In this document: piece after piece, positions 1 to 47,728 of the stretch | How the letters are laid out: every line of letters starts with the position of its first letter | Numbering within the stretch: position 1 is the stretch's first letter | NCBI GenBank assembly: GCA_965178125.1 | Contig: OZ237736.1 | Location: 62,001-126,000 of the forward strand | Source of the DNA: Bilabrum cf. latius | Lineage: Eukaryota | Length of the DNA stretch: 64,000 nucleotides | Direction: 5' to 3' | Notes under the pieces: model-generated | Told to the model about the DNA's origin: nothing | The model's input: only the letters and a program-made list of their open reading frames with translations | Databases searched by the model: none | Program-made: the position numbers and the translations under genes

Positions 1-1
1 T

Positions 2-24012: not shown

Positions 24013-24054
24013 TATAAATATATTAAGACTAAAGATATTTATTTATTTTTAACT

Positions 24055-25890: not shown

Positions 25891-25909
25891 ATACTTAATA
25901 CTAAGAAAA

Positions 25910-26977
25910 TTAATATACGAACATCTATTTAGGACAAGTGATAAAATTATAAGTCTTATTAATACATAGCCATCTATTACCTTCTCCAAACAATTTATAA
26001 ACACGATTTATAAGACTTGCATCAAATCCTAAATATGCTTTCATTAAATATTTGCTAAATTTCCATAGATTTCTCTTAAATAAAATAATATTATGACTTT
26101 CCATGACTATTGACCTAGTATTCGCATAATCATTCGTTAAATGACTTATAACTATCATATTTGTTGAGCTATGTCTTCCAACTTCACCTATACGCTTAAT
26201 TAAGAATAACGCTCTCTACTTTTTATCACCGTTTAAGGCTTCATAATCATCAAATACCACCACAGAAGGACCCTATTTTGCCCATTCTTCATACAATGGA
26301 GTAGTGGTAAATGATGCCTTTGTCTTGTCTTTACTTGTTGGTTTCATTCTTTCTATCTCTATCTCTCTTTTAATTAATTCATGAGGTTCTAATGACTTCT
26401 TTTCCTACCTAAAGAATATCTTTTCTTCTTTGTATTTCCTCATTAAGTCATCATAACTATCGTTTCTATCTACTGCTACTAATTTATCAATATCAATAAA
26501 ATTACCATATTTTAAATAAGTTGGATTTGTTTCCTGTACTGGTGTAATGACTAAAACCCTCTTCTTTGGAATGAACATATGATAATACTTGAGTAAAGAC
26601 TTAGCAATATAAGACTTACCAGCACCAGCCTAACCACTTAAATAGTGTATTTGTCTTTTGGTCTCATCATCAAAGAATGGGACTATTTCAAACTAACTCT
26701 TATCATCTATTCTTAACTCGTTAGTCTTTCTAACTAGTTTTTTATTTCCATTCACTAGCTTACACATCTCTTCACGTAATGCTTTTTTATTCTTCTCATA
26801 TTTAATTGCTCTCTTTCCATAATACTCTTCAAGTAAATCATCACTTATATCTTCTGGAGTTATGACTTTTTCCCCTACATCTTCACTAAAAAAGACGCTT
26901 TTGTTCCTCTTCTTGTGCTTGTATTCTCTTAAAGCAACTAAATGACTATTTGGTATTTCATCGTATGATAATGACAT
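25910..26977 (-). CDS. A32/FtsK-HerA-like genome packaging ATPase, 355 aa
   Basis: Walker A SG(TAG)AGAGKS, Walker B VVFDDYE, GRH, IVISH, TRSIVMESH. Confidence 0.9.
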
Positions 26978-27122
26978 TATATACTATATGTTAATATTTA
27001 TTATTTTTCTAATAATTAGTGGGTTCAAAAGGTATATTGTGAGAAGTAGCCATTTCAAATATTCATTTTAGAGTGCACAGTCTTAAGAATATGATTAAAA
27101 TATCATATAAATATATAGAATT

Positions 27123-27644
27123 ATGGATCACAAACTTCTAATTTCAAAAAGATATATTAAATCATTTTATAAGTACTCATGTAAAGTTAATTAGTACTAT
27201 AAGAAAGCAGAAGAGTAGCGTAATATGATGACAACTGATAGAGTAGATTGCTATACTAATTATATAACTTGTCTTCTAATTGCTCGTAAGTATAGAGAAT
27301 GTATTATCAATTGCAGTAAAAAGTACTATTATGATATGGACTTTACGTTAAATGATAACGGATATGTATCGTCTTCTTTTGATCACTTAAAAACATTCAA
27401 CTTTGACTATGCTAATTCAATGAAAATAAATGAATGTATAGAACAATTTAAACAATCCGTTGAGTGGGAAAGGTTATTTAAAAAAGACTTTTTTCAAATG
27501 TAGTTAATTTATGAATATCTAAAATTTTTCAGACTTAAGTGCTATTTACATGACATACGACCAGATAATCCCCTCCATCCGACAGAAAAAGTTAATAAAC
27601 TTAACGAAGAAGACATTGACGAGCTATTTTATAGTGACTGGTGA
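27123..27644 (+). CDS. Hypothetical protein (virophage A)
   Basis: ATG 27123 to TGA 27642-27644 with TAG read-through. Confidence 0.6.
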
Positions 27645-27838
27645 GACGACCGCCCCAAATTGCGGTAATATTATAGCTATTTAAGATATATTTCTGCAAT
27701 TCTGGGCGCGTAGGCTGTTAGAGGTTTTACATTTTCGGGTCAATCTAATGAAAATCTCACAATATAGGGCGCCCCAAATTGCGGAAATATATAAGTATCA
27801 AGAAAATTATGTCTGCAATTCTGGGCGTTTAGGTGTAT

Positions 27839-28657
27839 TCAATTATGTGAAACTAATTTAACGACCCTTTTATTGAGCTAGTCTTCTAAATATTTAATTA
27901 TAATACTTACATCTTTACTATTGAACGTATTAAAGTATTGATATACTGGTTTAATAAGTCCTAATTTACGTACATCATTCTTAAGTCTATCAATAACTCT
28001 ATTTTTTAATTTAAATGGAACTGTTGGAAGTAATAAACTTTTTAATCTTGTAATAGTCAAGTAAAGAAAGCCTACATCGGGATTCTTTATAAGTTGTTCA
28101 ATCTCTTCCTGCTTCTTCTTTTGACCTAATTCGTCGTAAATTACATCTAGTCTTTTTAATATCTTGAAATATTTTCGTTCTTTTTGTAAGTCTTTTATGT
28201 CATCTATCATCCTATCAGCTACTTGTTGAGGCTTCATTTTCAATATCTTACCTCCAATATCATATAATATGCTAACCTCTTCAATATATCCAGTATAGAC
28301 CCAACTTTCAACGAATATCATAGGATTATTCTACTATTTTAAAGATTTTAATATTTTAGGTCTATTAGTATCAAGAAATGTATCTAAAGAGACGCCATTA
28401 TCATCATATTCAACGTTATAAATATGTATTAATCTACTCCCTCTTAAGGTCTTTAATTCATTTATAACACTATTGACATCAGACAATTTAACGGGAGAGT
28501 ATAGGTCTATGTCTCCAGCCCAAAGTGAAAGCATATTATGAGTAAATGAATATGAACCATTTAAATAAATATCACTTCTATTTATTTTAAAAGACTTGAA
28601 TATCTTATTATCAAATCGTGAATAATACTTTAGCTACTACTTTGTTAATTTAACCAT
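27839..28657 (-). CDS. Putative Pol-beta-family nucleotidyltransferase-like protein, 272 aa
   Basis: LNGS...AGDIDLY motif (hGS..DxD); syntenic homolog at 53932-54747. Confidence 0.7.
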
Positions 28658-28691
28658 ATATTAATAAGAAATATTATAGTTCTTTATTATA

Positions 28692-29135
28692 ATGGACGAT
28701 TTCATAAGACAAAGACTATAGCAACTAGGTAAATCACCCTCTAATGCCAAAGTCAACAATTTAAAAGACGAATTTAAGCAAAAACTACTTGAATTATTTG
28801 AAGACTATCAAATGAATGGTGTTCAAGGTGGTTCAAAAGTTGGACGTTTTTTTAAAAAAGTAGGTAGAAAATTCAAGAAAGTAGGGCGAACAATTAAAAA
28901 AGGTATTAAAAGTAACGTAGGAAAGGCAATACGAACAGGTCTTAAGTTTGTAGCCCCTGAAGTTGGTATCCCTCTTGATGCTGCACTTAAGACTGTAGGA
29001 CTTGGAAAGGCTAAGCGTAAGAGGAAACCTAATCCAAAAGCTAAAGCAAGAGGTAAATTAGTGAGTGCGGTAATGAAGAAGTATGGCGTAAGTCTAGGAG
29101 AAGCAAGTAAAATATTAAAAGAAAATGGTATGTAA
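28692..29135 (+). CDS. Basic putative virion core protein with GG cleavage motif
   Basis: VQGG followed by amphipathic SKVGRFFKKVGRKF; Lys/Arg-rich; positional counterpart at 54805-55194. Confidence 0.7.
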
Positions 29136-29174
29136 ATTTAATAATATTATCTATTATCATAATATAATTATACG

Positions 29175-30788
29175 ATGTCTAAAAAAAGAACAGCAGTATT
29201 GGAAGACTTACTCGATGGACTTGTGGAAAGTAGAGCCCCTACAAGTCAAGCAAGACGAAAGGTAAGAAACGAAGAGAGAGCCATAAGAGCAGCTATAGGA
29301 GAAGCTAAACGAAAACAAAAGATTCAATTAGAAGAGGACTTTATGCCATTAGAAGAAAAGAGAAAATTAAAAAGAATAGCAAATCTTATGAAAAGGACTT
29401 TAAAAAGAGTTAAAGAGAATAGCAAGAAAGGTAAAAAGTATAAAGTAGCTGATATTGATCAAGTTGTAAGACTAGCCAAAGATAATGAACTACTTGATGA
29501 AGATGCTGAAGCTATTGCTAAGATGATATAGAATATTCCATATATGAGCTCATCTAATACACTATTTCAAAAAGGTAAAGCTGAGTCAAAACTTAACGAC
29601 GCATTAAATAACTTATTTATTGAAGCGGAAGAAATTGATAATTTACCTAAAGATATAGAAGACCTAGAAGGTGACTTAAGCAAAGAGTAGCTCCAACAAC
29701 TTCTTATTGATAATAATGTTAAACCTGAAACAATTGAAGGTATGAGTAAGCAGAGATTAAATGACCTAGCTACACGTATTCTTTTAATTAAAAGAAGACA
29801 AAATGAAAAAGGTAACCCAAGTAAAACATTTGAAAGAATTGAGGATGATTTTGACAAGCTAACTAGTCTAAGAAGACTTAATTTAAACAGGCAAGTATAT
29901 GATTTTGATGAAAGAAGGATGCTAGCCCGACGTAATGCACTTAGAAAGATTGCCCAAACAAAAGGTAATACAAGTGCTCTTGAAATGATAAACAAACTGA
30001 CTAAATTACTTGGACCGACTTATCAAGGTAAAGCGTTGTCGACTATGGATTACCATACTGAACTTAAACCACTATTTAATGAAATTAAGTCTGGACGATA
30101 TACTGACTTAAGCGCAGATGATAGAGCGAAAGGGATTACTAGAATGGGTAAAGAGTTTGTTGAAAATGAAAAGAAGGTTAAAAGTATGGCCGATAATTCA
30201 TCACGACGAAGAGCTTTTGGATAGTTAAGAGATTTTACAAGTGCTCAAAAAGCTGAAAGAGAAGAAAAGTTGAAACAAAGACGTGAAAGACAAGACTCAT
30301 AGATGGCACAATTGATGGCAGCACAAAGAAGCAGAAAAATGACGCAAAGACGCAAAAGATCTAAAAGTATAACAGAGAAAGCACCTCAACAGAAGACTCC
30401 TTCATCACCTGCTGGTGTACTAATGACGAATAGACAAAGAGATCCAGACTTACGAAGACAGGCCGCTTTAAGTGGTCTATCTAATGAAGCTGCTGAATAG
30501 ATTGCAAGAGGTAATGAACCTATAGATGATGAAACAGAAGGGACATTATTAGAACAAAGACCAGATGGTGAATTTGTAGCAAACGATGCAGGTGAAGATC
30601 TTGGTAAAGGTCAAGAAGCAAGAGCAAGAGCAGCACGAGCAGCACAAGAACGGGAAGAACAAGAACAAGAAGCACAAGGTCAATCATCTAGTGGAGCAAG
30701 TGAAAGTAAGACTGGTGAAGGTTCAGGTCTAAATAAGAGACTTGATACTCTAATATCTTGGTTGGATAATAGGTTAAGAAGTCTTTAA
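29175..30788 (+). CDS. Large charged/coiled-coil protein, ~537 aa
   Basis: Three track ORFs in one frame joined by TAG; positional counterpart at 55272-57350. Confidence 0.75.
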
Positions 30789-31031
30789 ATGGTATATACT
30801 ATAATATTTTAATTTAAAAATATTACATTGTAAGAGGTGGCTATATTAAAAATGACTAAATTATAAAAATCAATACGCCTACGCGCCCAGAATTGCAGAA
30901 ATATATCTTAATATCCTAATATATTATCGCAATTTGGGGCGCTGGTATTATACTATATCTTAAGATACTAAATTTTTAAAATCTCGTAATTTAAAAAAAA
31001 AATATCTAGTCTAGCTAATATATTATAAGTA

Positions 31032-31754
31032 ATGGCAGGAATATACAATCTCTTAAACAAAAATGAATATGAATTAAAGAGTAAGTCTATTGAAGTAGAA
31101 TCAATTAAAGCAGAAGGCTTTGATGGAGCCGCTAACTTTGGACTTAACTTCAATGGTCAATCACTACCCTATATTATGAGTGGTACTAATGAAGATGCTA
31201 AGTCTTTCACATGGAGAATAGGTAAAAACTCAGCATCAGCAGGTGCATCTATCTCAATTAATGTCGCAGGTGATGGAACTCAAACCAGTACTATGACAGC
31301 AACCAACTTCTTATCATTTACCGGTACACATGTTGCATCTTGTAGTGATGTTGCTTCTAGTTTACCAGCTGGTATTGGGTCAGTGGTTACTCTTGATAGT
31401 GTAGTTAATAAAGGACCCACAACTAATGAATATGTCGTAAGTCAAGCATCTCAACATTCACCACCTTTTGGAGTATATGTAGGAGAACACCATGATGATG
31501 GTAAAGTACTTGTAGCATCTTTAGGTGATGGAGCTGTGAAAGTAAATAAAAATGGAGGAGATGTAAGTGCGGGTGACTACTTAATAAATAGCTCTGATAG
31601 TGGATATGTCTACGCGCCTAATCCTCAACCAGTCTCTGTTGATTAGACTATTGTAGCAAAAGCTCTAGTAGATGAAGACTTTTCAAGTGGTACTTCTACT
31701 GATGCTAATGGAGTAGAATATAAAGTCGTACCTTGTATTTTCTTAACAGGATAA
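31032..31754 (+). CDS. Putative fibre/spike-like protein with chaperone-like C-terminal domain
   Basis: Gly/Ser/Thr-rich beta-type sequence; SFTGTH...GDYL...TIVAKAL pattern; N-terminus resembles 43367-43888. Confidence 0.55.
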
Positions 31755-31797
31755 TTGAGTTTAATTATAGAAATATCTTTTTTATTAATATAATAAA

Positions 31798-32436
31798 ATG
31801 GATGGAATCAGTTCAAGCAGTGTCGTTGTAGGAGGTTTAAGTGTCTTACTACCTCTAGCATACTCTGGTGGTATGTCTTGTTGGTAGTGGTTATGGGATA
31901 AACCTTTACATAAACGTAAAAAAATATGTATCTGTGTGCCTGAAGGTAGTGGTAAGTCTACCGCTTGTCAAATATTACGGTCTAGTTCTAAAGACTGTTT
32001 ACTTGTTGATTTAGATAGTACTCTAGGAGTATATGTCTAGGAGCCCGAACTACTTATGAAACTAGACGAATGTAAGTTAAAAAGTGATTGGGGTAATTAT
32101 AATATACTTAATAGAAAAGCCAGTAAAGAAGCCCTTCAATGGGTAAAAGATAACTGGTTGAATGAAGGTAGTGAGAAGAGAGTAATATTTTTTACTAAAG
32201 AGTTAAGTCTAGCTAATGAGTTATTTAAAAAAGAAAGTATAGTTGTATGTCTTCCATCTAATTCACTATTCTAGAAGACATTAAAGGATAAGAAAGTAGA
32301 TAAATAGAAGTCTATGTTAGAAGACCGTAACTCATATATCAAAGAATTGAACCCTTCTAGCTATTACATTTATAATACTTACGAATAGCTTCACGATAAA
32401 TTGAGGAATTGCCTCTAGTTAGGTTACCAAATTTAA
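31798..32436 (+). CDS. P-loop (kinase-like) protein with N-terminal hydrophobic segment
   Basis: ICVPEGSGKST, LLVDLD; homolog at 57396-60026. Confidence 0.75.
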
Positions 32437-32570
32437 AAAGTCAATACACCTACGCGCCCAGAATTGCGAAAATATATCTTAAATAGCTATAATATATCCG
32501 CAATTTGGGGCGATCAAATCCTAAGTTTAATTATTCCGCCAAAAAATATTTACTATATATATATATAGAT

Positions 32571-32885
32571 ATGAACTTTAATAATATTTATAACATGAAA
32601 AGTTTGAACAATATATTAAAAAAGGTAAAGACAGCTTTTGATAAATTTTTTGATGGAAAGGACCTTCGTATTTGTGAAGTTGAAGAGCTAAAAGAAGTAG
32701 AAAAAGACTAGATTATTACCTACGAAGATATTAAGTCTATCCTAGGTCTTAAAATGGCTATGTTGCCTAAATATGAAGGAATGTTTTAGATGGCGCAAGA
32801 TTACAAAGATTTTCGTATTATTAATGGCTTACTTGATTTAGAAATTATGAATGAGTTAAAACGTGTGGAAAAATCAACACGGTGA
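32571..32885 (+). CDS. Hypothetical protein flanked by two palindromes
   Basis: ATG after promoter motif; two TAG; TGA stop. Confidence 0.6.
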
Positions 32886-33000
32886 GACGCCCAGAATTGC
32901 GAAAATATATCTTAAATAGCTATAATATATCCGCAATTTGGGGCACTCGAAATATCTAACCTGTCAATTTGTATTTTTATAATTAAAATACATACTGATA

Positions 33001-33507
33001 TTACAATTTATAATCTAGACAAATATTGTCTGGTTGTTTAGAAGTATTACATAATAGACTTAACTTTTGATCTATTTCTTTTTCTACTCCTGTTTTAGTC
33101 TTTTCGTCTTCTTGTTCCATCTCTTGGACAGTCTCGTTGAATTTATCCATATCACCGTAAGTCTTTATAAATACTTGTTTTTTCTCGGACATCTTGATTT
33201 TGCTATCCTCCACATATTGCTCACCTTCAATATTACATAATATATTATTAAGATGGAGATAACTTTCTGCTTTGTCATCGTGATCGGTGCTTAATACTTC
33301 AACATACTTTGTTTTAAATCTAAGTTCCAAGTTATGACGTATTTCACTCATATGTTTATGGATCTCTTTTGGGTCTTCTATTTCGCTCTCTTCATACATT
33401 GCTATTATAGTACTTATGACATCACTAGGGTTTTCGTCTCGTATTTTAAGTATTAAACTAAAGACATCAAAGTATTCATTTAAAAACTTCCAAATTGTGT
33501 TTTTCAT
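33001..33507 (-). CDS. Hypothetical protein
   Basis: Intact 168-aa ORF with TATATATAG upstream. Confidence 0.65.
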   Translation of the reverse strand: MKNTIWKFLNEYFDVFSLILKIRDENPSDVISTIIAMYEESEIEDPKEIHKHMSEIRHNLELRFKTKYVEVLSTDHDDKAESYLHLNNILCNIEGEQYVEDSKIKMSEKKQVFIKTYGDMDKFNETVQEMEQEDEKTKTGVEKEIDQKLSLLCNTSKQPDNICLDYKL

Positions 33508-33526
33508 TTACCTATATATATAGTGG

Positions 33527-34192
33527 TCATTTTAATAAGATATTTTTAAACTTTGTAAAGTTATCATGAATTTTATCACTATCACCCCAGCACACTTTAG
33601 CATACCATAAGTTGCTGTCATACATATCGGTCTCATCAAAATGAATATGTCCTAATACTCGCTTTCTCATTTTATCAGCGTGTGATTTACCTCTTCTTAA
33701 AGCATCAGGATAAGTCTATGTATTCTTTTTGTTAAAATATACCTTTGTATCATTAATCTCTACACAATAAACATATTCAGGTTTATCACTCACTGTAAGA
33801 TCACTAATATTGATTTTTGGTTTTGGTTTCTCTTCAATGACTTCACTCACTACTTCACTACTTGTATCACTATATGTATCATTCAAATAGTCTTCCTCTT
33901 TATTATCCTCTATGTCTTCGCTATCTAATTCAACATCTTCCAATATAGCCTATTGTCGTTCTAATTGTGGAGGTTTTAACTAGATAGGTTCTATTTTAGA
34001 CGGTTGTCTCACTAAATTTATAGTTGCTATCTCGTCCCCTTCATCATCTATTTCACCCTATAAACTTGAATAATGCTTGTTAATCCATAACATTTTTAAG
34101 TCATCACGAGACCACTTGTACTTTTCACTTAACTTGACTACTCTTTTTAGAAGGTCTTTATTTTTGTATCTTGTTATATTTAACAATTCCAT
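33527..34192 (-). CDS. Hypothetical acidic protein, homolog of 39054-39824
   Basis: One frame with TAG; YCVEINDTKVYF...SNLWYAKV versus YKVSVNGNDVFF...PEFWNSRV in B. Confidence 0.65.
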
Positions 34193-34422
34193 ATACTTAT
34201 TATAAATAATTTCTTTGACTTTGTTTTATATTAATATGGTAAATACTAGAAAAAATTAATATTTCAAAAGTCGTATCTATACACTGGCTAACATAAAATG
34301 ATAAAATTATAAAAATCAATACACCTACGCGCCCAGAATTGCGGAAATATATCTTAATATCCTAATATATTATCGCAATTTGGGGCGCTGGTATTATGCC
34401 ATAAAGTATATTACTAGATTAA

Positions 34423-36078
34423 TTATCTCTATCTATCAGAATAGTCTTTCGCAAGTGGTCGTATTTGGTCTTTCCCATAATCCTATTCTAATTTCTTACG
34501 GGTAATCCATTCATTAAACTTATTAGAATATCCCTTATATTTGACTAAGTATTCAATAAGTCTATCTTTATTTTGTCTTTTATCTAAAAACTTCTCTATT
34601 GTGTCTGGTTCTACTTCTAAACCTTCAACATTATCAATTTCAGGCTCTTCACTTTCCTTGTCTATGTCATCATTTACCTTATCTTCGTGTTCTACATTGT
34701 CTATTTTCTATAACTGTGAAGCATTAAAGAATCCAGTAAGAGGTTCTCCCTCTTTGTCCATTACTTTATATTTAATCCTCTACTTAGGATTTCTTGGTTT
34801 GGTCTTCTATCTAACAGTGAAGACTTCTCTAGACCAATTAAATAAATTTCCTTTAAACTTGTTCTTCTCAAGTAATACTCTAACTCTATCCCCTACATTA
34901 AGATCTTTATCATTCCCGTCGAAATTATTGGATAATTTCTTATTTTCAATTCTAGATCTAACTACTTCTAAATTTTCGGGTTTCATTGCTTCTAGTGGAG
35001 ACATTCCTATAGTGTTGTGTTTTCTCTTATTATATGCTCTTACTAGTCTCTATAATGACGTATGCCAAACACCATCACTGTCATTCTTAATAGCAAAGTC
35101 TTTTCTAATCTATTCTTTTATAGTCCTATTAAGTCTTTCAACTGCACCATTAGACTATGGATTTCCTGCGATGGTGAATAGTGGTTTTATGTCATTGTCA
35201 TTCATAAATTTAATATATGCCTCTTTATTAAACTCATTATCACTTAACATAACAGTCGGTTTTCTCCAATTAGGTTTCTTAAATAGTTTCTTCATCTCAC
35301 GAATTATATTAACTAATGTCTTATCTTTTAATGAAATACTCCATAGGTATTTTGTGAATATATCCATTATATTTAATATCCAATTATAGCCGTCATTAGT
35401 GTCTGAATACTTTTGCATGTCTATTAAGTCCAATGCGTAAATTGAGAAAGGCTTAGTAGGTACAAAAGAACTTACTGCTGACTGTTTAGGTCGTTTTTTG
35501 GTCAATTGGTGGAGCATCTAGTTATTTAACCACTTTTCTACTTGTCGTCTTTTAATACGTTTATCTTTTTGTCTAGCTAGGTCATATAACGCATCACGAC
35601 TGACTACATTACCTTCTTCATAATATAGTTTCTTTAATATTGGTTTATAATTAAATTTGTCTTTGTCGTCCTCATCTTCTACTTCAATTAATTTACCGGT
35701 TGGTTTATTAAGTTTTTTCGTCTAAGCTTTAGTCATCTTATAAAAAAGACGAACTAGGTTAGACTATTGAACGCTAAAATGAACACGACTCACTAAGTTA
35801 TATAAAGTGAAATAGTCTCCATCCTTCTATATTGAGTTAATTACCCCACCTCTTCTAAATAGTGGCTTTCCCTTGATATTACTTACATAAGATACATAAG
35901 AATATAAAGGTATTTTTTTAATACTTGCTTTGGTAGTTGGTACCTCTTCAAATCCTTTATCAAGTAGTCCCTTAATAGTGGCTTCTAAATTATCACTATC
36001 TTTTTGATTTTTTGTCGGTTCATCACCATACGTGTAAGATATTTTACCTCTAGTGTATGTCTTGCCTTTATTAGTCAT
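34423..36078 (-). CDS. Retroviral-type (rve) DDE integrase with C-terminal chromodomain, ~551 aa
   Basis: ALDLIDM, MDIFTKY, LSDNEF, NGAVERLNRTIK; chromodomain EYLVKYKGYSNKFNEW. Confidence 0.9.
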
Positions 36079-36438
36079 ATTTACTATATATATAGTAGAT
36101 ATAAATTTTGGCGTTAATTAAACGATTTTATAACATATTGTCTTCTGTTATTTCTTCTAGTTGTTTATGCTGTAATTGTTCCATTTTTCTTTAATATTTC
36201 TTCTCGTTCTTCTTTACTTTGAAGATTATAAAAAAGAGTCTATGATCCATTTGACATATCCCACTCATTGCCATCAAAACATAATTTAATTTCATCTTTT
36301 AAATTGTCCTCTATAGCTTTTATAGCCTTTTCAATAACTTTATTATTTTTACAAGCTTTTAAAAACTTGGGAGACATTATAATTTTCAAGTCGTACATAT
36401 ATATAAAGACGATATAATATGTTGGCGTAAATTAAACA

Positions 36439-36856
36439 TTATTTCTTATATTTCTTTCTCTTCTAGTTACAGTCATAACAAAACCAGAAAGTGGCTCCTG
36501 GTTTAATAAGATACTTTTCACATTTCTTACATTGTGAGTATTTCCTCTTTTTATTATAACAACTAAGACAAGTCTTTTTATATTTATGTTTTTCAATGAA
36601 CTCATCGCAATCAGTGCATCTACTCTTATCTTTTAATATGTCTTTATTTAATTCGTGTTTAATGGATTTAATATGACTTTTCCAGCTACTTCTCTTTACT
36701 TGTTTATTACATACATCACAAGTCTTATACATACAGTATTTGTAGACTTTATGATCAGAGTTAAAAGTGTTATTAATACATTCAGAACCTAAATCAAATA
36801 TATCTCCAGTAGGTGGATATTTTACAAGAAAGACTGTTTTAATAGGATGTGAACAG
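36439..36856 (-). pseudogene. Multi-CxxC zinc-finger gene, 5' part cut off by insertion of virophage B
   Basis: CSHPIK...PTGDIFDLGSECI aligns with CICGHEIR...PSGYVFKVGSSCI of the intact homolog at 47729-48280; homology stops at the C7 run at 36857. Confidence 0.75.
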
Positions 36857-37396
36857 CCCCCCCGCTACGGTAATAAATAAATTTATTCCCTTCGGTTAAG
36901 GATGATTAACATCATCAATAGTTCCAGTCCATCAGAGCTAAAGCTCTTCAGTCCGTTCCACTCCTTTTGGAGCTAGTCGCTCCAAAAGTCAAGGTGGTCC
37001 TCTTCATACTGCTACTTCATATAACTGCTTTATCCTTCTAATTATATAAAATCAATTTAATATAAAACTCTATACGATGACCATATCCACAAATTGCGTA
37101 TTAGTATATGTATTATTTAGCAAAACGTGGATGTAGCCCTCTTGTGAAGGTGTTATGGGACTCTAGCCATTTTCTAGCCAAAAGTTCCATCACTTTATGG
37201 GACTCCATTATTCAACCTTCTAAACTACCTTCATTATACCCCCTTATCCTCGCTTATACCTTCACAAATGGAACACACGCGCTACAGCAACTTGCTACAC
37301 TCGTCATCGCAATACCACAAGCGCCACAGTTCAATACACCCCGGAACGATGACGCTGTAGGCCAGCTGATCACTTCACCAGCCTAAAACAATAGAT

Positions 37397-38090
37397 ATGG
37401 ACCGCAAGATTGAGGTAAGAATCCACAGGATAGATAATCAACATATGGAAATTGCTTTGCTGACCGTATCTGTATCTATCGCACCGGTTTTGCTCGCCAA
37501 CGCAGCTCTTCAAGCCCGACCAACGCAAGAAAACGGGAACGGAAGCGCTACTCACCTTCCAGGACACCGTACAAACCGAGAAGAACCCCAAGAAGCTTTT
37601 GAAAGCGCATTCAAGGCTACTAGGGGACATGCACCTCGTTGAGCAAACCGGGAAGTCGCTGGAGAAGGCAATTCGGGAGGCGGTCGGAGCATTGGAACCG
37701 ACAGGCGTCAACTCAAAGGCTCTACTCGCTGTTATCGCTTCAATATTCCCCAAGGGGAGTCTTGACGATACCGATGCTGACTTTGACCGGATTAATGGCG
37801 TGCTGAAGATTCTACATCACGGCAGAGATTACGCGGAGACGAGGCAGACACAGGCGTTCTTGGCACAGAAAATGGCTATCCTCAAGCCATTTCTTCCAGC
37901 ATATGACATCCCATCGCTCGTTGGTGATGTTTTGGAGAAGAACCAGAAGAGGAAGCGCCGCCAAGACTTCAACAAGTAGCTTCTTCTGGAATCTGGCATC
38001 GCCGCACCAGCCAAGCGGTTTCGCGGCAATGAGAATCTCATCCAGGACTATCCCCGGACGGCGGGTTCTTAGCCCAAGATGGAGAAGTGA
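37397..38090 (+). CDS. Hypothetical protein, probably spliced (exons 37397-37414 and 37506-38090)
   Basis: GAG|GTAAGA...GCTGAC...CGCAG|CTC; removing 91 bp joins MDRKIE in frame to the otherwise 5'-open ORF; basic KRKRR patch. Confidence 0.6.
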
Positions 38091-38273
38091 GAAGGTTGAA
38101 CAACCTTTTTTATTATAAATTGTCGTGTTTGTTATTGGTAGGGACACGGCTATATTGGAGTGGCCACGCTGTCGTGTGTAGCAGGGTACGAACCGTGCTT
38201 CCAGCATTGACACGGGTGGAATCCCGCATTGAAGAGCATTTCAATGTTTCATTTGTGGTCTCAGTCAATCCAA

Positions 38274-38741
38274 TCAATCCACACGCATCACCACGTATCC
38301 ATTTTGCTCGCTCGTGCTCCCGTCGTAGCTGTTTAGAAAATGTCCCAGCCCGTCCTCATCTTTACAGGCCTGAATGAGGTCGTCCCAGCGCCCCTAAGCC
38401 ACTATAAATGACTTAAGAAGGGCGCTTAAAGCCTCGCTGTGGTTCGCGTCAGCGGTAGCGGTGCTTATGATATCGGCATCGCAAGGCAGGAAGCGCGAGA
38501 GGAACGCAGGAACGAAGGAAGCAAGCGTCTCTGTAGCGTGGTCGTCCAAACGTTTGTCTGCTTCTTCTTCGGTGATAATCTCATAGGTCTGGATTTCCTC
38601 GCCTAGCTTCACCGTGGCAGTCTCGCCGTCAAAAGATTGAAGAACCCTGTCCCACTCCTCGCCCACTGCTCCAATGTCTTCAATACCAGCAATAAGCGCC
38701 TTCATTACTTCATCATTAACATCTGTAGAAACCCCGGCCAT
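38274..38741 (-). CDS. Hypothetical acidic protein, 155 aa (phage-like YEIITEEEAD...DGLGHFLNSYDG motif)
   Basis: ATG 38741, one TAG, TGA at 38274; GC-richer than rest of B. Confidence 0.7.
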
Positions 38742-39053
38742 TGTTTTATGTGTTTTATGTGTGGTCCAGATAAATTTTGGCGTAGCACAGGTTCCGAAGA
38801 TGAAGATGAGAAGGTGGTAGACGATAGCCGATTCCAGTGGTAGCAGTGAGAAGTTCCAGCACGAGGAAGTGATGAAAATGTAGGGCAGGAGGGTATAAAC
38901 TGACGGATGGAACCGCAAAGGAAGGAGAATTGGATTGAATAATTGAAGCCAGACCCATAACCCTAGCCTATAGGCTAGGGATAACCCCCACATAACCCCC
39001 CCACCTCTAAGCGTTTTTTTAAAACTCAAAAATTATAACTTAGTATTATAGAT

Positions 39054-39824
39054 ATGAACTTTAATAATTATGTCATTGAAAATCCTGTCCTAATGAAGCA
39101 GATTTATAAGGCTACAGACCATATTACAGATAGTACGCAAAAAATTTTAGAGACCATTACTACGTATGTAGATTTAGGTGGTAAGTTTTCAAAACCAAAA
39201 TTAATTAATAAAAATATAGTTAGTGATATTAAAGAGAAAAAAGCCGTCAAAAAACCCAAGAAAGAAGAGAAACAGAAGATACAACACGATAATAACGACC
39301 AAGTTGAAATTAAGCAAACATACATTCTAGATAAATTTAATGACTACAAACCACCAAATAATAAAATTTATAATGATGTAGATGATTTACAACCGCCAGA
39401 ATTAATTAGATAGACCGCAATAGATGAAAAATTAACCGGTATGGAGCCTGACAGTGAAAGCGAAATAAACAGCGTTAGTACCGAACAAGACTAGATAGAA
39501 GCAGAAACTGATGACGAAATGATACCTGAGGAAGACAAAAAAATAATTGGAGACCTGGAAAGGCTAGAAGACGGAGACTATAGGTATAAAGTGTCCGTAA
39601 ATGGAAATGATGTATTCTTTGGTGAAATTAATTTACCCGATGTAGAGGCTCTTAAGAAATAGTTTAGCCCTCGTAAATTACAAATTATGATTTGTAAAAT
39701 TAAAAGAAATTTTAATATTAATAATAGCGATGATATAAACAGCCCTGAGTTTTGGAATAGCCGGGTATATTTGACCCTTGATGTGAAGGCCGAACACGAA
39801 AAACTACAAGATATCTATAATTAA
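39054..39824 (+). CDS. Hypothetical protein, homolog of 33527-34192
   Basis: Track ORF extended through TAG to TAA 39822-39824. Confidence 0.65.
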
Positions 39825-40187
39825 AAGCCCCTACAACTTAATAAACGGGCTAGAATTTAATAAAATATTTTAATATAACCGCTATATTAAAATCTATACG
39901 ATGGCTATATCCACAAATTGCGTATAATTATATAGTATTTCTAGCAAAATGTGGATGTAGGGCCTCTTGTGAAGGTGGTATGGGACCTTAAGATAATTTT
40001 AAAAAATAGTTCCATCACTTTAGAAGGTGTTAAAATACACCATTCATATCACAATCTATTTTTTAGGGCTAAATGGCAAAAATCACCTTTCACCTTCATT
40101 AATTATTATAGCCCCTTTAAGCCCTCTATAATTAAATATGGCGTTTAAAATAGTTTAAAAATATATTTCTAATAATATATATAGAAA

Positions 40188-42965
40188 ATGAATAATAAAA
40201 ACCTCGTAAGTTTCCCCATCAAGCACAATCAAAAAATACCCGATGTTAAAAGCTGGCGTTATCTCACCAAACCCGAGCCTAAACGATTCAATAATCAGAA
40301 TATGGCTATTATCACCGGAGAAATTAATAATATAACCGTGTTTGATATTGATTCATATAAATGGAGCGATAAGAAGGAGCATTTATTCATCAAGAAATTT
40401 TCAGATGACTTTGTGAAGCGGTTCAACACATTCACGGTTAAAACAGCGGGTGGAGGGTATCATTTATATTTTAAATATGATTAGAATATATTAACTACCA
40501 CCAATAGAGATATTGACGTTGATATTCGTAATGATGGGGCTTATGTAGTGGCACCACCAAGTGGCATAAATGGGTCAAAATACGAAGTTATTAATAATGT
40601 AGAAATAAAAAAATGTCCTAAGGAGCTTTATAAATTTTATGAAAAGTATATTATTAAATCCTCTAAGAAATCCAACGTAAAAGGGGCGAGTAAAAGGATA
40701 TCAAAAATTGATAATCAAGATGTGAATAACTGTATGATGAAATTCATTCTAAATGGTAAAGACTGGTCAATTATATTAAATAGATTAGATAAGAAATATT
40801 TAAATAATTATAGTGATTGGTATAAAGCAACCCTAGCGAGTAAATATTTAGGATTTAAGAAGGAATGGTAGGAGTGGAGCAAGAAGGGCAATAAATACGA
40901 CTACCACAAAAATAACAAGGTGTGGAACTCTATCCATTATTTTGATAAGTTAAAAACCTTTAATTTAGTTAATTCAATAATTTAGAATGATAAAAGTTTA
41001 AAGGCATTTGTGAAGGATAAGTATATTTCAAAGTGTTATTATCGTCCTTATGACGAGAATATTAACGGGTATACAGAAATTAATAAACCTAAGTTAGATG
41101 ATATAGAGAAGCCCGAACGCTTTTTTAAATATGAATATAACTATGTGGTAAAAAGTGATACAGGAACAGGTAAAACAACAGCATTTAAGAAGTATATTAA
41201 ACAGGTTCAAACGCCGTTCTTATCCATTGTGTCCCGTGTATGTTTAGGCACAGAGCAATACGAGAGCTTTTTAAATGAAGATATTAAATGTGAGTTCTAC
41301 CAGAATAAAGATTTTGATTTTGGATAGTCTCTTATTATTACGCCGGAAAGTATCCCCCAAATTGTGAATTATGATTTTTCTAAATACATCGTATTCTTGG
41401 ATGAATTCAATAGCATTATAGAGCATATATTAAGTTCTACCACGATGAATAATAATAGGGTTCTTGTATTATTTATTATTTTAAAAATGATAAGGACGTG
41501 TAAATAGTTTATTGCTGTAGATGCTGACATATCCCAGATAGCGATGAAATTTTTAAAATGTGCTGGAGTAGAATTTAGCTTCATTAAGAATAAATATAAG
41601 CATTTTAAGGACGTAAAAGTATATTTTGAAAAAGACCAATAGAAATTTTACGATAAATTAAAAAGTGAAGATAAATTTATACTGGCGTGTGATAGCAAGA
41701 AGAACGCAGATACATTTTATAAAATGTTATGTAAAGATGGTATAGAGGACGTTAAATTAATTACTAGTGATTTATTACCTGATGAAGATGTGAGCTTAGA
41801 TAAATATGATAAAATTATATTTAGTCCTAAAGTCATTTACGGATTAGATAGTGTAATGGAACGCCCAGTGTATGGATTATATAAAGGAAAAACGATTCTA
41901 CCGCCGTAGATGATGTAGCAACTGGCAAGATGTAGAAATCCCGAATATATGAATATATATTTTGAAGATGTAAAATCCATTTATCCAAGATATGAGAATT
42001 TAAAGGAGGTATAGACGACCTTAAATATGGAAATTAACGCATAGACAGATTTATATACTAAATTAGAAAAATACGAAAAAAGGATAATGTAGGAGAATGA
42101 TATTGACATTGATATTTTTGAGGGAGAAGATGATGAAGAGATAGCCCATAAAGCAATGATAGAGGCATCATACAAGGTTTATTTACCACTCAAGAAATTA
42201 TATAATTTCAAATGTGATACATACGAAACAAATAAATATATTCATTTATAGCTTATTCTTAAAAACAGGGGTGCCGATGTATAGGTGGATAAGGAATTAC
42301 CACAACGAATGAATAAATAGCAGATGAAAGAGGCGACAATGGAGATACTACAAGAAAAGATTGATTCATTTGATGTAGAGAACGACCATATAAAAAGAAG
42401 AATTGAAATTTTAGGGCTACCAGAGACAGCCATAACGGAGGATATTAAAATGTTATTAATTGATAATTACAAATTAATGAATTATTTTAATTATGCTAAT
42501 TTCAAGAGAAAAGATAAATATAAACTAATGACAGAATTAAAGGATAGAAAGGATTTTAAGGATGAGAAAGCAAAAAGTACAAAGAATAAAATAATCATAT
42601 TGTAGGAGATGTTATAGACGCTTAAATTGAATAAATTTGATTTAAGTTATACACGTAAAAATGAGAAATCCATTAAATATATAGAAATGGGTAAAAGATA
42701 TGTAGAAGTAAGCGGGGCGAGATTATAGAAGCCAATAGAAACCGATAGTGAATTACACGGGGCAATCGTAAAATTATATAAGTAGTTATTTGGAAATATC
42801 AAAACCTCCTGGAGTATGGGGAATAAAAAGGATAAAAAGGATAGAGAATTAAGAATTAAATTCACCAAGGAGAAAGAATTATTTGATGAAGTTTATAAAT
42901 ATTAGTATCCCGAAATGAAGGACGTATACAAGGAATCCAACGAACGATTAGATTAGAATATTTAA
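40188..42965 (+). CDS. PrimPol fused to origin-binding-protein-like SF2 helicase, ~925 aa
   Basis: Five track ORFs in one frame. TVFDID, GGGYHLYF, KSDTGTGKTT, FLDEFNS, FSPKVIYGLD, QLARCRNP. Confidence 0.88.
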
Positions 42966-43023
42966 TACCTTTTTTATGTGTTTAAAATAACTTAAACATT
43001 ATATATTTATATAATATATAGTG

Positions 43024-43326
43024 ATGAGCGATATTTAGAGTTCAAGCAATACATAGGAACAACCAAAAATTAATTATATGTAGGAATATTACAAAACAAA
43101 CAAAGACAAATGGAATAAAAAATATTTAGCTAGAGGAAATGAAAAAGTTAAATGCGATGTGTGTGATTGTTATTATAGAAGGAAGGACAGAACGAGACAC
43201 GAACGAACGAAGAAACACCAAAAAAATCTCAAAGAACCAAAAAAGGATATACTAGAGGAATATATCAAAAAACTTAATCAAACCCTGCTTAATAGCGGGA
43301 TTAAACCACCGGAGATATCAATTTAA
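43024..43326 (+). CDS. C2H2-type zinc-finger protein
   Basis: KVKCDVCDC...RHERTKKH; three TAG; TAA stop. Confidence 0.7.
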
Positions 43327-43366
43327 ATTTATCTATTTATTTATTTTTTATAAATAAAAAGATTTT

Positions 43367-43888
43367 TCAACCTTTAATAACCATCCAATTAGCGGACCAA
43401 TCATTAGAGGAATTACCACCCGTTAAATGAATCGTAAATCCATCGGTTCCTGCTACTACGTGGGAAAATTCAACCGGCTCACTGGCGGGGGTGATTGTAG
43501 TAATAAAAACCAAATCACTAGAAGTCATACCCGGAACACTAGCGAATTCAGTAGCACCTCCACCACTCCAATTTACCCTTCCTTTATGCGCTACGGTGTT
43601 ATTTGCTACTACTTCACCTTTTACGGTTAAATCACATTCGTGACCGTCTTCATCAAAACTCATAACTAAACCAGCAGATGCGGTATTGGCACCGAATCGT
43701 AAAGCTTCACCCGAAGTGATGTAAGAGATACCCTTACTGTCAAGATGTAATCCTGCGTTGCTAACAACTACATCACTACTATTCACAACAGCATTTACAT
43801 ATAGACCACTACTATCTAATCTACCAGTTGCGACATTCTTACATTGAATAGATATATCATTAGGTTGCGATAATCTTGCTAAGCTCAT
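43367..43888 (-). CDS. Putative fibre-like virion protein
   Basis: Intact 173-aa beta-rich ORF; MSLARLSQPN N-terminus similar to 31032. Confidence 0.55.
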   Translation of the reverse strand: MSLARLSQPNDISIQCKNVATGRLDSSGLYVNAVVNSSDVVVSNAGLHLDSKGISYITSGEALRFGANTASAGLVMSFDEDGHECDLTVKGEVVANNTVAHKGRVNWSGGGATEFASVPGMTSSDLVFITTITPASEPVEFSHVVAGTDGFTIHLTGGNSSNDWSANWMVIKG

Positions 43889-43941
43889 TTTTTGTATATA
43901 TAAATAAGAGAAAAACTAAAACTTATATCAAACCTATAATA

Positions 43942-44649
43942 TTAAACTTTCATTAATTTTTTAGCTCTATCTACGGCGTCCATAAAGCTATCTTTTAATG
44001 TTGGTTCATTCCATAATACAAACCTAGACCAAAAAGCGGGGGATTTATAGTCTTTAAAGTCTTCATTTATTGAATGTCTTTTAATATAATTTTTCTTTTT
44101 ACGGTTTGCTTCCTTCTCTCCATCTTTATTATAATATTGTATAAAGTCCATATAAGGGGTACCATCATTCTTAATTCCACCAAAATGAACAGTAAACAGA
44201 ATATTATTACCTTGAACTACTTTAATCATATATTTTTTATTTGATTTAGTTGATTTATATAAATTAAAAACTGGTTTAGGTCTAAATGATTTCACGTGTC
44301 CGTTATTAAATTTTTCCTTCATTGCTTCCTCTATTTCTTCCGTGTCTAATTCTCCAAAGGTTAAAGGGGTCTCTTTATTTATTCTTTTAGTGGGTCTATA
44401 TATATCTCCTTTTTCCTAATATCCCTTTTCTCCCTTCTAATTCTTCCAATCCTCTAATTTCCACCTTCTTAAATTTTTCTATGCTTCATTTAATTTAATT
44501 TTATCATATGTCCCCCCTAGTTTTTTATAACGAGCAAAATATGCTAATGAACGATAAGCTGAAGGCTTTTTATACGTTCTATTTACTTTCTCAACTGCCT
44601 GACGCCATAATTTAGGACTATTAACATAATTAGGTATATTATCATTCAT
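43942..44649 (-). CDS. Conserved large-DNA-virus-type hypothetical protein, apparent two-domain fusion, 235 aa
   Basis: PSAYRS..GGTY..LRRW..YRPTKRI..TPLT domain followed by KKYM..VHFG..YIKRH..FWSRFVLW domain. Confidence 0.65.
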
Positions 44650-44843
44650 CTATATAATTAATAAAATGATAATTTTTTAATTGCGTGAGCCGTTTTCTTT
44701 CTATATTCTTCATAGAGTCTTTTATTATTTGGATTCTTCATTAATTTATTTTTTACCTTCTTTAATGCCTTCTTAATAGCATACTAAACAAAGATATTAC
44801 TAATAATATTAATCATATATTATATAATTAATAAATATTTAAT

Positions 44844-46343
44844 TCAAAGCATTAAACCGCCTTTTTTTCCTTTCCTTGATATAATTTCTTCTTTTTCATT
44901 TACGACCATTAAATCATTCTATCCGTGGATAATTAATTTCTATCCTTCTTCATTAATCTATTCTTTTTTATATTCACCTAATTCTTTACCTACTTTAAAA
45001 TTTAATCTTTTGTTAAATGTGATACTGTCGGTGTGAATTCGTATAATATGTTTAGCGTTGTTCTTATTCACTTTCTTCATCAATCGTTGTCTTCCATATG
45101 CCAGAATAAAAGGTTTCAATTTTCCCCAGCTATATTTAAAGGGTACTTTATGTTTCAAATGATAAATAAATTCTCCGTCATTATCCATTTCTACACGGTC
45201 AATATCAAATTTATCTATATTTATTTTTTTATCGTCTTTTGATGTAATTGTCTTTTTAGAGGAACTACATAATTTACCCCATAATGAATTTAATATTTCT
45301 TTTGCTAGATATGATTTGCTTTTTAATTTGTAGAACATTGAGACATAGGATTTAAAAAGTGTTTCACTTTTGATATATTTATCATAGGTCATAAAATTAA
45401 ATTCGTCGCTTGACATCTCTATCTCACAACCATATTTAACAAACATATTCATATCTGTAAAGACATAATAAGTAAATTCATTTTCAAATACCTTCATCAT
45501 TTGAAAGATATTCGGGTCGCATTTTCCACGGCTTACCTTACATTTATAAATCCCTATTTCGTTTTTATTATTTATATATTTATTATCAATTGTTTTATAA
45601 ATAGGATTTCCATATGGTAGTAGTGAATTAGATGACATAATGGCGGGGTAATGACTATTTATATCGTAGGTGATAAACTCCTCATATTGTCCCTTCTTGT
45701 GATATTGAATCCCGCCACGCGTTGAACCTTCAATAAATACCGCTTCCTCTGGGGTTATATCTGGTGGGCTATCTATCATCATATTAAACATTGTAAAGAA
45801 ATGAAGGGCTGTTTGTCTGATTCCATATTTCATTACATCTAATGATGGGTTCTCGTCGTGTAATTCATCACTTGCTATACTCAGCCTTAAGCTCCATTCT
45901 TTGATATCTTCATCCTCTGGGCATTCGTGAATGGTGTAATGAAGATAATATTTCTTTGAATGATAATCGGTCAGGCTCTCAACTCTATATTTATCTTTTT
46001 CAATTATTTCGGCTTTATCGGTTAATTTAACAACCATAGATTTATGGCACCGCACAAATAAAGGTTTCATCCTCTAGACGGCTTTAAATGAACCATCTTT
46101 ATATTCTAAACAAACCCTTTTAAAACTCTCTTTTTTCCTACTTAGATAATAGACCTTTATATCGTCTTTCTCTCTAATCTCTATATCCATTTTTAGACCT
46201 GAAACAAGTTTATAAAGGTTCTTTGTAGTTATGGGCTTACCGTTAAATACCTTTTCTAGATACTTCACGGATTGAATGGGGTTATCATACTTTTTACCAA
46301 AGCATATATTTAATTGATTTAACACATTTTCGTAATTTATCAT
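44844..46343 (-). CDS. polB: Family B DNA polymerase (protein-primed-like), short, 499 aa
   Basis: RGG, motif A YDINSHYP, motif B KEILNSLWGKL, motif C IRIHTDSI. Confidence 0.88.
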
Positions 46344-46421
46344 TTCCTATAGTATATTATATTTAATATATTTTTAAGCCATTTTAAACACATATTATAA
46401 AGTTTAAATTATAAAATGTAA

Positions 46422-46766
46422 TTATTGTTTCGGAGCAGTGAGGATTAATATAAATCTCTTCACTTGCTCATCGCTTAAGAAGGTATAACGAGAAGAAGGA
46501 CTGAATAACATTACATCATCCTTTAATTTAAATGGTGAACCAGTTCGCCAGCCTATGGGGTAGAGAGAGCTAACATACGCATCATAATTCTTTAAATGGG
46601 GCTTTTGTTTTAATAACCTCTAGATATATTTTTTTAATAAAGTCTTCATTTCTAAATCATTATATCCATTATCATTTTCACGAAGAGGGAACACAAAATT
46701 ATATACGGGCTTATTGTTTTTAACAAGTTGAGTTCTAACGATTTGAATATCACTTAATTTAACCAT
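46422..46766 (-). CDS. Hypothetical protein
   Basis: MVKLSDIQ...TAPKQ-TAA, one TAG; absent from the track. Confidence 0.6.
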
Positions 46767-46860
46767 TTTTATATATATAACCTATAGATATTTTATTTTT
46801 AAGCCAAATAGACGCGTTTAAAATGACTTAAAGATTTTATTTTATTATAATATATATAGA

Positions 46861-47406
46861 ATGTCAAAATTTTAGAGTTATGAACCAAGCGAATTAATGG
46901 AACTTTTAGAAGAGGGAGCCATAAAGAAAGCCAAGAAATATATTAATCAATTCTTCTTTAAAACTTTTAAAGGGATATTTTTTAATAATACCGTAGAAGA
47001 TAAATTTGAACTGGTGGATGAAGACGAATTGAATGGTTTGTATCTAACCCCTGATATGAAGACCGACAGCGCCAAAAATCCATTTGTTCCATACATTTAT
47101 ATGTTTTCCAGTGAGCCCCCGATTTATTATACAGGAGATTTTGAGAGTAAAGACCCCATAATGACAATTAAAAAGAAGGACAAACCCATCAAATATATTA
47201 ATTTGTCATACGGTCAATTTATACCCGATGAAGTAGAGGAACCAGAAGAAGAAGAAGAACCAATAAGACCCAAGAAAAAGACTAAGAAGAGGAACAAGAA
47301 GAAACAAAAACGTGATAATAATAGAAATGTTGAGAAACCAGATGATGAAGATGATGATGAAGAAGCCTTTAGAGAGCAACTTCAAGAAGCATTAAAAGAT
47401 TTCTAA
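46861..47406 (+). CDS. Hypothetical protein with charged tail
   Basis: ATG 46861 after TATATATAG, one TAG, TAA stop. Confidence 0.65.
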
Positions 47407-47728
47407 ATAATTTAATATTTATACTAATATTAAATATGATATCTTTATTAATAGTTGAACACCTTGACCATCTAATAAAAGGGCTAGAATATTAAAATAT
47501 ATATGGTTATCTCTATAATAAAATCCATACGATGGCTATATCCACAAATTGCGTATTAGTATATGTATTATTTAGCAAAACGTGGATGGATTAGTTTTAT
47601 GAAGATGATTTGATTGATATCGTATTTCTAGCCCAAAAGTTCCATCACTTTAGAAGGTTGTAATATAGCCCCTTCTAACTCCCATCATCAATATGTTAAA
47701 TATTAATTTTATCATTAATATCTAATTA

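Follow-up and report, generated by a model that had tools for sequence, protein, structure and literature searches.

The locus lies in a 64 kb window, i.e., the whole stretch of DNA that was analysed (ending at position 64000), and comprises host DNA, two virophage proviruses, hereafter A and B, and a retroelement (Table 1). Bases 1-15186 are GC-rich (0.60-0.72) eukaryotic DNA. Between 14800 and 15400 the GC content falls from 0.60-0.72 to 0.27-0.38, and from approximately 15187 to the end of the window it stays at around 0.29-0.36, the exception being a GC-rich island at 57.9-59.9 kb. Translated with the standard or bacterial code, the AT-rich DNA holds short ORFs alone, the longest being 370 aa. 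When TAG is read as a residue, the same DNA resolves into two tightly packed gene sets with long ORFs (932, 628, 551, 925, 629 and 692 aa, among others). Neither tRNA genes nor Rfam matches were found in the window.

Table 1. Features of the 64 kb window. Positions are those of the window.
Feature	Position	Strand	Remarks
Host mitochondrial T7-type RNA polymerase, nuclear gene, C-terminal two thirds	326..2485	+	single open frame, six in-frame TAG, TGA end
Virophage provirus A, ~21.7 kb	15187..36856	+	29-36% GC; right side truncated; marked by GC drop and ORFs open under TAG=Q; left boundary approximate, read from sequence
A primase-helicase	17219-20017	+	
A MCP	22126-24012	-	
A penton	24055-24981	-	
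A protease-like	25342-25890	-	
A ATPase-like	25910-26977	-	
A P-loop protein	31798-32436	+	212 aa
A integrase	34423..36078	-	rve core (Pfam 32.8 bits, cut-off 32.6) and C-terminal chromodomain (Chromo 30.3 bits, cut-off 25.1)
A Cys-rich (zinc-ribbon-like) gene	36466..36856	-	5'-truncated, 130 codons kept; stop TAA 36463-36465
A/B junction	36856..36857	.	X1 contig 34387-36856 ends there; X7 contig 36857-36920 starts there
Virophage provirus B, at least 27.1 kb with Ngaro	36857..64000	+	runs off the window
B left-terminal block	36857..37283	+	starts C7-GCTACGG; first B-type repeat 37040-37223; four short hairpins in first 184 nt
GC-richer (~50%) module	37284..39006	.	two convergent ORFs; boundaries approximate; seems variable between copies
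Module ORF	37629-38090	+	no known family; 0 Pfam families
Module ORF	38274-38741	-	no known family; 0 Pfam families
B primase-helicase	40188-42965	+	
B DUF5872 protein	43942-44649	-	
B Cys-rich homologue	47729..48280	-	full-length, 183 aa, five in-frame TAG
B MCP	48934-50823	-	
B penton	50895-51848	-	
B protease-like	52185-52760	-	
B ATPase-like	52769-53869	-	
B P-loop gene, split by Ngaro	57396..60059	+	two parts joined give a 206-aa frame colinear with A 31798-32436
Ngaro/DIRS-type element, ~2.0 kb	57878..59890	-	internally deleted; ends ambiguous by a few bases
Ngaro repeats, in minus-strand order	A1 59714-59894; ORF remnant; B1 58206-58339; A2 58033-58213; B2 57874-58007	-	
B integrase	60063-61220	-	rve 45.6 bits; chromo-like C-terminus 21.7 bits, under cut-off 25.1
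B DUF285 repeat proteins	62587-63384 and 63474-63998	-	

The host RNA polymerase is 51-62% identical to three homologues (P0007, P0002 and P0004; tblastn) and colinear with them to their last residue, which coincides with the TGA at 2483. The homologues compared come from Cafeteria and two others, and Cafeteria is the closest named relative of the host as judged on this one gene. In-frame TAG codons lie at 1361, 1652, 1715, 1784, 2138 and 2381; the first of these aligns with a conserved Q in three homologues and the one at 1784 does so in two. A second host ORF, of 1213 aa and with a Cys-rich C-terminus, carries six further in-frame TAG codons.

The same codon use runs through the AT-rich DNA. 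In the virophages, 161 in-frame TAG codons are spread over 34 ORFs (11153 codons) that hold no in-frame TAA or TGA and end in TAA (25) or TGA (9); reading TAA as Q or TGA as W does not lengthen them. The primase-helicases were aligned with the 138 full-length homologues (> 800 aa) among the 150 matches listed, and at four TAG columns Gln is found in 138/138, 136/138, 129/138 and 74/138 of the homologues. Across well-occupied TAG columns Gln is enriched 6.6-fold, and many other TAG sites fall in variable columns dominated by D, E or K, as expected for surface positions. Host and virophages read TAG as Gln, a code that is formally NCBI table 15. Decay or RIP-like mutation was rejected as a source of the in-frame stops, given that TAG alone occurs in frame, that it falls in invariant Gln columns and that host genes behave alike. 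As to a suppressor tRNA supplied by the virophages, no tRNA gene was found in the window. Among 69 related metagenomic virophage loci, the primase-helicase genes showed no in-frame TAG, and a single locus has one TAA; we therefore conclude that the virophages described here adopted the code of their host.

The gene sets of A and B are syntenic and share the same orientation. Since their homologous proteins are just 23-36% identical, A and B are two different virophage-type proviruses, an assignment made from gene content and protein similarity. The MCP of A matched Pfam MCP_V20_C with 30.4 bits (cut-off 27) and PDB entry 6g45_A with E 1.2e-15; that of B reached 17.2 bits in Pfam, under the cut-off, and E 3.7e-8 against 6g45_A. 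The penton of A matched 6g41_A (E 4.8e-13) and 3j26_N (E 4.7e-5), and the penton of B matched Pfam V18-19 with 29.2 bits (cut-off 27). Entries 6g45 and 6g43 (MCP) and 6g41 and 6g42 (penton) are ones that we take to be from mavirus. Mavirus shares MCP and penton homology and a retroviral-type integrase with A and B, but sequence similarity is low and the code differs. Both primase-helicases carry a Prim-Pol domain (Pfam, E 9e-14 and 7e-16 in the two proviruses). Scores were under the Pfam cut-offs for the protease-like proteins (Peptidase_C57, 16.3 bits against 24.5) and the ATPase-like proteins (AAA_10, 25.2 against 27.5; AAA_22, 25.9 against 27), and neither kind returned a PDB match at E <= 0.1; their position and order beside penton and MCP suit a virophage module.

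Pfam and PDB searches recognised no protein-primed polymerase, and a candidate PolB at 44844-46343 of B, proposed from motifs by eye alone, was set aside as neither resource supports it. Single-protein scans of viral contigs with both MCPs gave zero matches, and A, B and the MCP of A were unmatched in a phages collection that seems to be without relatives. Each provirus has its own repeat family in the window: palindromic A-type repeats are confined to 15430-34420, and B-type repeats to 37040-37223, 39864-40048, 47495-47678 and 52051-52148. An inverted copy of the left end of A is absent from the window, as is one of the left terminus of B, and no G7 run occurs after 50 kb.

The GC-rich island within B is a Ngaro-type element, which had been placed there in the preliminary description from the letters of the DNA. 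Its split direct repeats come as one pair of 181 nt and one of 134 nt, both with 99% identity between the copies, and follow exactly the order A1-[ORFs]-B1A2B2. A probable remnant of the tyrosine recombinase lies at 58380-59288 (minus strand), where the C-terminal catalytic part matched Pfam Phage_integrase with E 0.016 and 15.4 bits (cut-off 27.1); it has six database homologues, two of which (P0274 and P0275) carry PF00589. The recombinase frame is, by our reading, broken between its N- and C-terminal parts, and of the RNase H-like domain the tail alone was found (RVT_3, E 0.18). The interior of approximately 1.4 kb is without a reverse transcriptase, and the copy is therefore a deletion derivative that is not autonomously mobile. 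Excising approximately 2010 bp restores the frame of the P-loop gene, with an alignment score of 321 compared with 255 when the element is retained. With the repeats in order, the probable recombinase remnant in place and the P-loop gene restored on removal, the placement of the Ngaro inside B holds.

At the right-hand side of A, a Cys-rich gene read on the minus strand is interrupted between 36857 (C) and 36856 (G), in the frame ...P-TAG-R-G-G/C-S-H-P-I-K..., and past 36856/36857 the sequence turns into CCCCCCCGCTACGG. This string has a single occurrence in the window with up to two mismatches allowed, and as a bare 14-mer it is not rare, being matched in 13 of 100 shuffles. From its residue 2, the 131-aa fragment of A (36466-36858) corresponds to residues 43-180 of the 183-aa protein of B, with 29% identity (40/139; BLASTP E 7e-17), and tblastn across the window returned the same single match (E 3e-14). 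Pfam matches of the fragment are weak (Zn_ribbon_6, E 0.036; C1_1, E 0.042), and a comparison with the protein collection at near lengths gave none. Approximately 42 N-terminal residues are missing and the homology reaches the final base before the junction; the cut in A therefore falls within a gene rather than at one of A's own ends. In frame upstream, on the B side, a TAA follows after 9 codons and ATG is absent. The Cys-rich gene of A is a dead, 5'-truncated copy.

Its missing 5' part is absent elsewhere in the window: a tblastn search with the 60 N-terminal residues gave E 0.77 for the best other match. That search and minus-strand translations of 15181-15420 also ruled out circular permutation of A, which would have put the missing 5' part at the left end of A. 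A and B share no sequence at the junction, repeats included, which means that the junction is not explained by homologous recombination or by misassembly at a repeat. Exact scans of viral contigs with 27 bases to the left and 33 bases to the right of the junction returned 0 and 0 matches, and a scan of metagenome contigs for 22 bases of the B terminus returned 0.

These results bear on several points of the preliminary description. It had reported that the Cys-rich ORF of A follows its B homologue until a break at 36856/36857, and that the repeat family changes there from A-type to B-type. The alignment confirms the former, and the latter agrees with the repeat map, in which A-type repeats end before the junction and B-type repeats start after it. 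It had also called the B homologue intact, which is correct if TAG is read as a residue and incorrect under the standard code, in which the five in-frame TAG codons interrupt it.

Contigs of four public runs (X1, X2, X5 and X7) were placed on 27000-46999 at 90% likeness. One X1 contig of 2470 nt (34387-36856) has its end precisely at 36856, and one contig of X7, a run from a different study and under a different organism label, has its start precisely at 36857. The coincident ends are read as branch points of the assembly graph, i.e., the same end with different neighbours, from which we infer that a repeated mobile unit has its boundary exactly at 36857. This is in keeping with the earlier proposal that an element ends there. 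Among the matches listed, no contig bridges 36856/36857 and none gives a joint between the two sides, which is uninformative either way. The left-terminal block of B is covered in all four runs; in X2, X5 and X7, contigs end or a loose end occurs at 37283. Its first 184 nt fold with z = -4.17 (0 of 200 shuffles fold as well). Summed contig depth, which is not a copy number, is 1329 at 36907 in X2 and about 1080-1200 in the core of B; the value is not doubled, which speaks against a terminal inverted repeat that is both long and perfect.

The most probable reading of the junction, to which we give a probability of roughly 55%, is that B was inserted into A and is nested within it, as seen at the left junction, the window stopping at 64000. 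It is favoured by A being cut in the middle of a gene, by the other side being the end of an element, and by a second nested layer in the same locus. Furthermore, B possesses an rve integrase (45.6 bits), and the 34 ORFs that are open under TAG=Gln fit recent events. Several observations count against it. The supposed insertion is visible from one side alone, and the right terminus of B, the 5' part of the A gene and any target-site duplication would fall outside the window. Without the Ngaro, B already measures at least 25 kb and its other end, which should be near, is not seen; complete Cafeteria elements, at 5.5-21.5 kb according to passages of PMC8547959, are shorter than B, and the longest related metagenomic contigs, of up to 26.6 kb, come near to its length. 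The terminus motif of B is unmatched among the 69 related loci, and the depth in X2 speaks against a long perfect TIR. In addition, the block 36857-38748 occurs in X7 without the cores of A or B and may constitute an independent module or element.

If B is nested in A, a GC-rich protist chromosome would first have carried A as a resident virophage provirus. B would then have entered as a linear virophage genome, and its rve integrase would presumably have joined the ends of B into the Cys-rich gene of A, placing the left terminus of B (C7-GCTACGG...) next to approximately codon 43 in that gene, with the distal part of A predicted past the right end of B, beyond the window. Later, a tyrosine-recombinase retroelement of the Ngaro type would have landed in the P-loop gene of B, a copy so deleted presumably having relied on movement in trans. 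The three layers all look young, because all other genes of A and B are open and the halves split by the Ngaro still join.

The chromodomain of the integrase could steer integration to silenced proviral chromatin. Chromodomain integrases are a known route into silenced repeat chromatin, and the chromodomain guides chromovirus integration into heterochromatin, as Gao et al. reportedly found in 2008. Chromoviruses have an rve integrase with a C-terminal chromodomain as here, although the Chromo match in B is under the Pfam cut-off (21.7 compared with 25.1 bits). A preference for integration into existing proviruses, which the preliminary description had suggested, does not follow from the locus. 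Cafeteria is reported to have 138 elements in four genomes of 34-36 Mb, with a median of 19.8 kb (passages of PMC8547959). By our own arithmetic from these figures, a 35-Mb genome with about 35 elements, each of about 20 kb, would be about 2% provirus. With dozens of insertions, an occasional one in a provirus is therefore expected by chance, and one junction is no evidence of preference.

An unlikely alternative is a truncated A that abuts B without being split by it: either the distal part of A was deleted after B had inserted, or illegitimate recombination or end-joining brought the two together, and in both cases no remainder of A would follow B. The joining could predate integration, between co-replicating genomes, or have occurred at a chromosomal break. 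The visible data, a cut gene against the end of an element, would be the same as under nesting, and the virophages of Cafeteria include truncated elements and a recombinant type (passages of PMC8547959). A-like and B-like sequences also reach very high contig depth together in X2 and X5 and may replicate side by side. Against this, an extra deletion would be required, or a recombination that used the exact terminus of B, and the other genes of A are intact. The junction very probably arose by insertion.

It is considerably less probable that 36857-39006 is not the terminus of B and is instead a small mobile module in its own right, about 2.1 kb long with two ORFs, lying between A and B or common to several virophage types. 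It has C7 runs at both ends, at 36857 and at 38996 (38996-39002, within the GC-richer module), and its GC content is above that of the rest of B. In X7, 36857-38748 is present in several variant contigs and is all of the 20 kb that is covered at 90% likeness. The stretch 37246-39006 lies on separate contigs, with depth below that of the A and B cores, in X1, X2 and X5, and contigs end at the module borders (37246-39006 in X1; 37155-39006 and 37155-38985 in X2 and X5), which suggests a variable cargo module within the left end of B. The block nevertheless bears a B-type repeat that shares 83% identity with those at 39884 and 47518, and its right end is without an inverted copy of the left terminus. 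A variant contig in X2 and X5 joins 36897-36949, a B-type repeat and 37155-39006 at high depth, which is what a portion of a replicating virophage genome should show. Moreover, it is B and not the rest of the A gene that comes next, so that two independent junctions would be required.

About as improbable is an assembly chimera, a chimeric read or graph error having fused two multi-copy AT-rich elements that belong to different loci: variant copies of both elements make assembly hard (for example, the window's version of 29597-30613 has a contig depth under its surroundings in X1, X2 and X5) and Cafeteria assemblies met such problems (passages of PMC8547959), but A and B have no repeat at the junction and the exact base recurs as a contig end or start in two unrelated runs.

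The closest described system is that of the endogenous mavirus-like elements (EMALEs) of Cafeteria burkhardae (Hackl et al. 2021) which, in the passages of PMC8547959 drawn on here, are, like A and B, AT-rich virophages of about 20 kb in a GC-rich (~70%) flagellate. They also have an rve integrase, a primase-helicase, a module of MCP, penton, protease and ATPase (the last two being protease-like and ATPase-like genes in A and B), and intergenic repeat motifs, and they carry Ngaro elements of the A1-[ORFs]-B1A2B2 layout found here, the present copy being a 2.0-kb deletion derivative. The host is a different organism, its mitochondrial RNA polymerase being just 48-62% identical to that of Cafeteria. 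A further difference is that all genes here need TAG=Gln, whereas the main text of PMC8547959 does not contain the words "genetic code". Both Ngaro in virophage and virophage in Ngaro are on record for Cafeteria (PMC8547959), and passages of PMC8547959 and PMC12220804 describe virophages or polinton-like viruses that house retrotransposons, as well as a single virophage within a Ngaro; no virophage inside a virophage is described in those passages. As nesting, the locus is on balance a variant of a known theme, and full nesting still hinges on the sequence beyond 64000. The shared TAG=Gln code is a more remarkable feature of the locus than the nesting.

Among eukaryotes, the fornicate Iotanema reads UAG as Gln. 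The nuclei of Blepharisma (table 15) use the same assignments as found here, with TAG as Gln and TAA and TGA as stops, but Blepharisma is a ciliate. Panek et al. 2017 (PMC5304391) deal with nuclear codes that give UAG and UAA different meanings. Endogenous polinton-like viruses of Streblomastix strix share TAA/TAG=Gln with their metamonad host (Bellas et al. 2023; PMC10120064), and a shared host code is taken as a sign of long association in the passages of that paper drawn on here. Unlike in the Streblomastix elements, TAG alone is reassigned here, and the elements are virophages with capsid genes of the Sputnik/mavirus type. For virophage hosts, a stop-codon reassignment has been inferred from one ochre tRNA (passages of PMC6905037). 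Our literature searches turned up no UAG=Gln code reported for virophages or for relatives of Cafeteria; a genome paper on the organism itself, should one exist, may state it.

If B sits inside A, proviral virophages are landing sites for virophages and not for retrotransposons alone. This bears on how protist genomes limit or concentrate such elements, and on whether an "antiviral" provirus can be disabled by another of the same kind. A virophage dependent on UAG=Gln is expressible solely where that code is read, which makes the triangle of host, giant virus and virophage a testable case of the genetic code as a host-range barrier or mark. A UAG-only reassignment would also be added in a lineage for which no reports of one were found. 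Tentatively, and with some doubt, a lineage near Cafeteria may have switched to UAG=Gln only and its virophages followed, leaving host, virophage and presumably the helper giant virus in a private code, in which active virophages might pile up in silenced chromatin by means of the chromodomain integrase and build the stack of host, virophage, virophage and retrotransposon. The virophages do appear to be active, with very high contig depth in some runs.

A separate observation concerns annotation: under the standard code, these virophages and many genes of the host are misread as broken.

The TAG=Gln code, in which TAG is read as glutamine while TAA and TGA serve as stops, is used by the host itself. 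Two of its nuclear genes (326-2485, forward strand; 3813-7454, reverse strand) have TAG codons within the reading frame where Gln is conserved, and both terminate in TGA. In a search of the protein collection, the first fragment of the host mitochondrial-type RNA polymerase reached a best identity of 48-53%, and the closest named match of this polymerase was Cafeteria roenbergensis. The primase-helicase of B, the provirus that extends past the right edge of the window, was 26-40% identical to those of 69 metagenomic virophage contigs from IMG/VR (5-26.6 kb in length), and in-frame TAG was found in the primase-helicase gene of none of the 69.

Contigs from public sequencing runs were compared with window positions 27000-46999, which span parts of B and of the neighbouring provirus A. 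For X2 and X5, word depth of the A and B contigs was approximately 1100-1250 in one run, which comprises 200 million letters, and 500-800 in the other, which comprises 1839 million letters. X1 (477 million letters) gave a depth of about 5-6; contig depth is not copy number. By arithmetic, the depth attainable for a single-copy locus in a multi-megabase genome is far below the X2 and X5 values, and for this reason these samples seem to contain A- and B-like genomes in amplified or enriched form, i.e., active virophages, with the same caveat that depth does not equate to copy number.

The same contigs point to parts of the proviruses that vary. The window version of 29597-30613, within the low-complexity protein gene of A, lies on a contig whose depth is below that of its surroundings in three runs, therefore this gene differs from copy to copy. 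Its product and that of the B gene at the same position have a high content of Q, E, R, P and A. At the GC-richer module in the left end of B, contigs end at the module borders and depth is below that of the B core. Both of its ORFs contain TAG codons, and a C7 run at 38996-39002 is the direct-orientation counterpart of the C7 at the B terminus.

Features of proviruses A and B in the window
Feature	Position	Strand, copies or GC	Detail
A-type intergenic repeats	15430-34420, e.g., 15830-15925, 20480-20575	~16 copies, both orientations	80-100-nt palindromes between genes
Low-complexity protein gene, A	29175-30788	+	537 aa
Module, left end of B	37284-39006	~50% GC	two convergent ORFs, no known family
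499-aa protein, B	44844-46343	-	motifs YDINSHYPAIM, NSLWGK, HTDS
20-nt tandem repeat, CTTTGRAAAGTATGAACCWA-like unit	48412-48564	six to seven copies	between MCP and Cys-rich genes of B
Low-complexity protein gene, B	55272-57350	+	692 aa; same position as in A
DUF285 repeat gene, right side of B	62587-63384	-	Pfam E 8e-55
DUF285 repeat gene, paralogue	63474-63998	-	Pfam E 4e-38

The motifs of the 499-aa protein of B look, by eye, like the palm of a family-B DNA polymerase; this reading has no backing from Pfam or PDB searches, and A lacks a counterpart. The DUF285 genes are built from 75-nt (25-aa) repeats, and the family takes its name from Mycoplasma proteins; such genes are uncommon cargo for the right side of B.

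Giant viruses use hairpins as transcript-end or regulatory signals, and the A-type repeats and their B-type equivalents may act in the same way. Folding predicted long hairpins from the A-type repeats (z -4.4 and -3.1), and both families have the core AAATTGCG in common.
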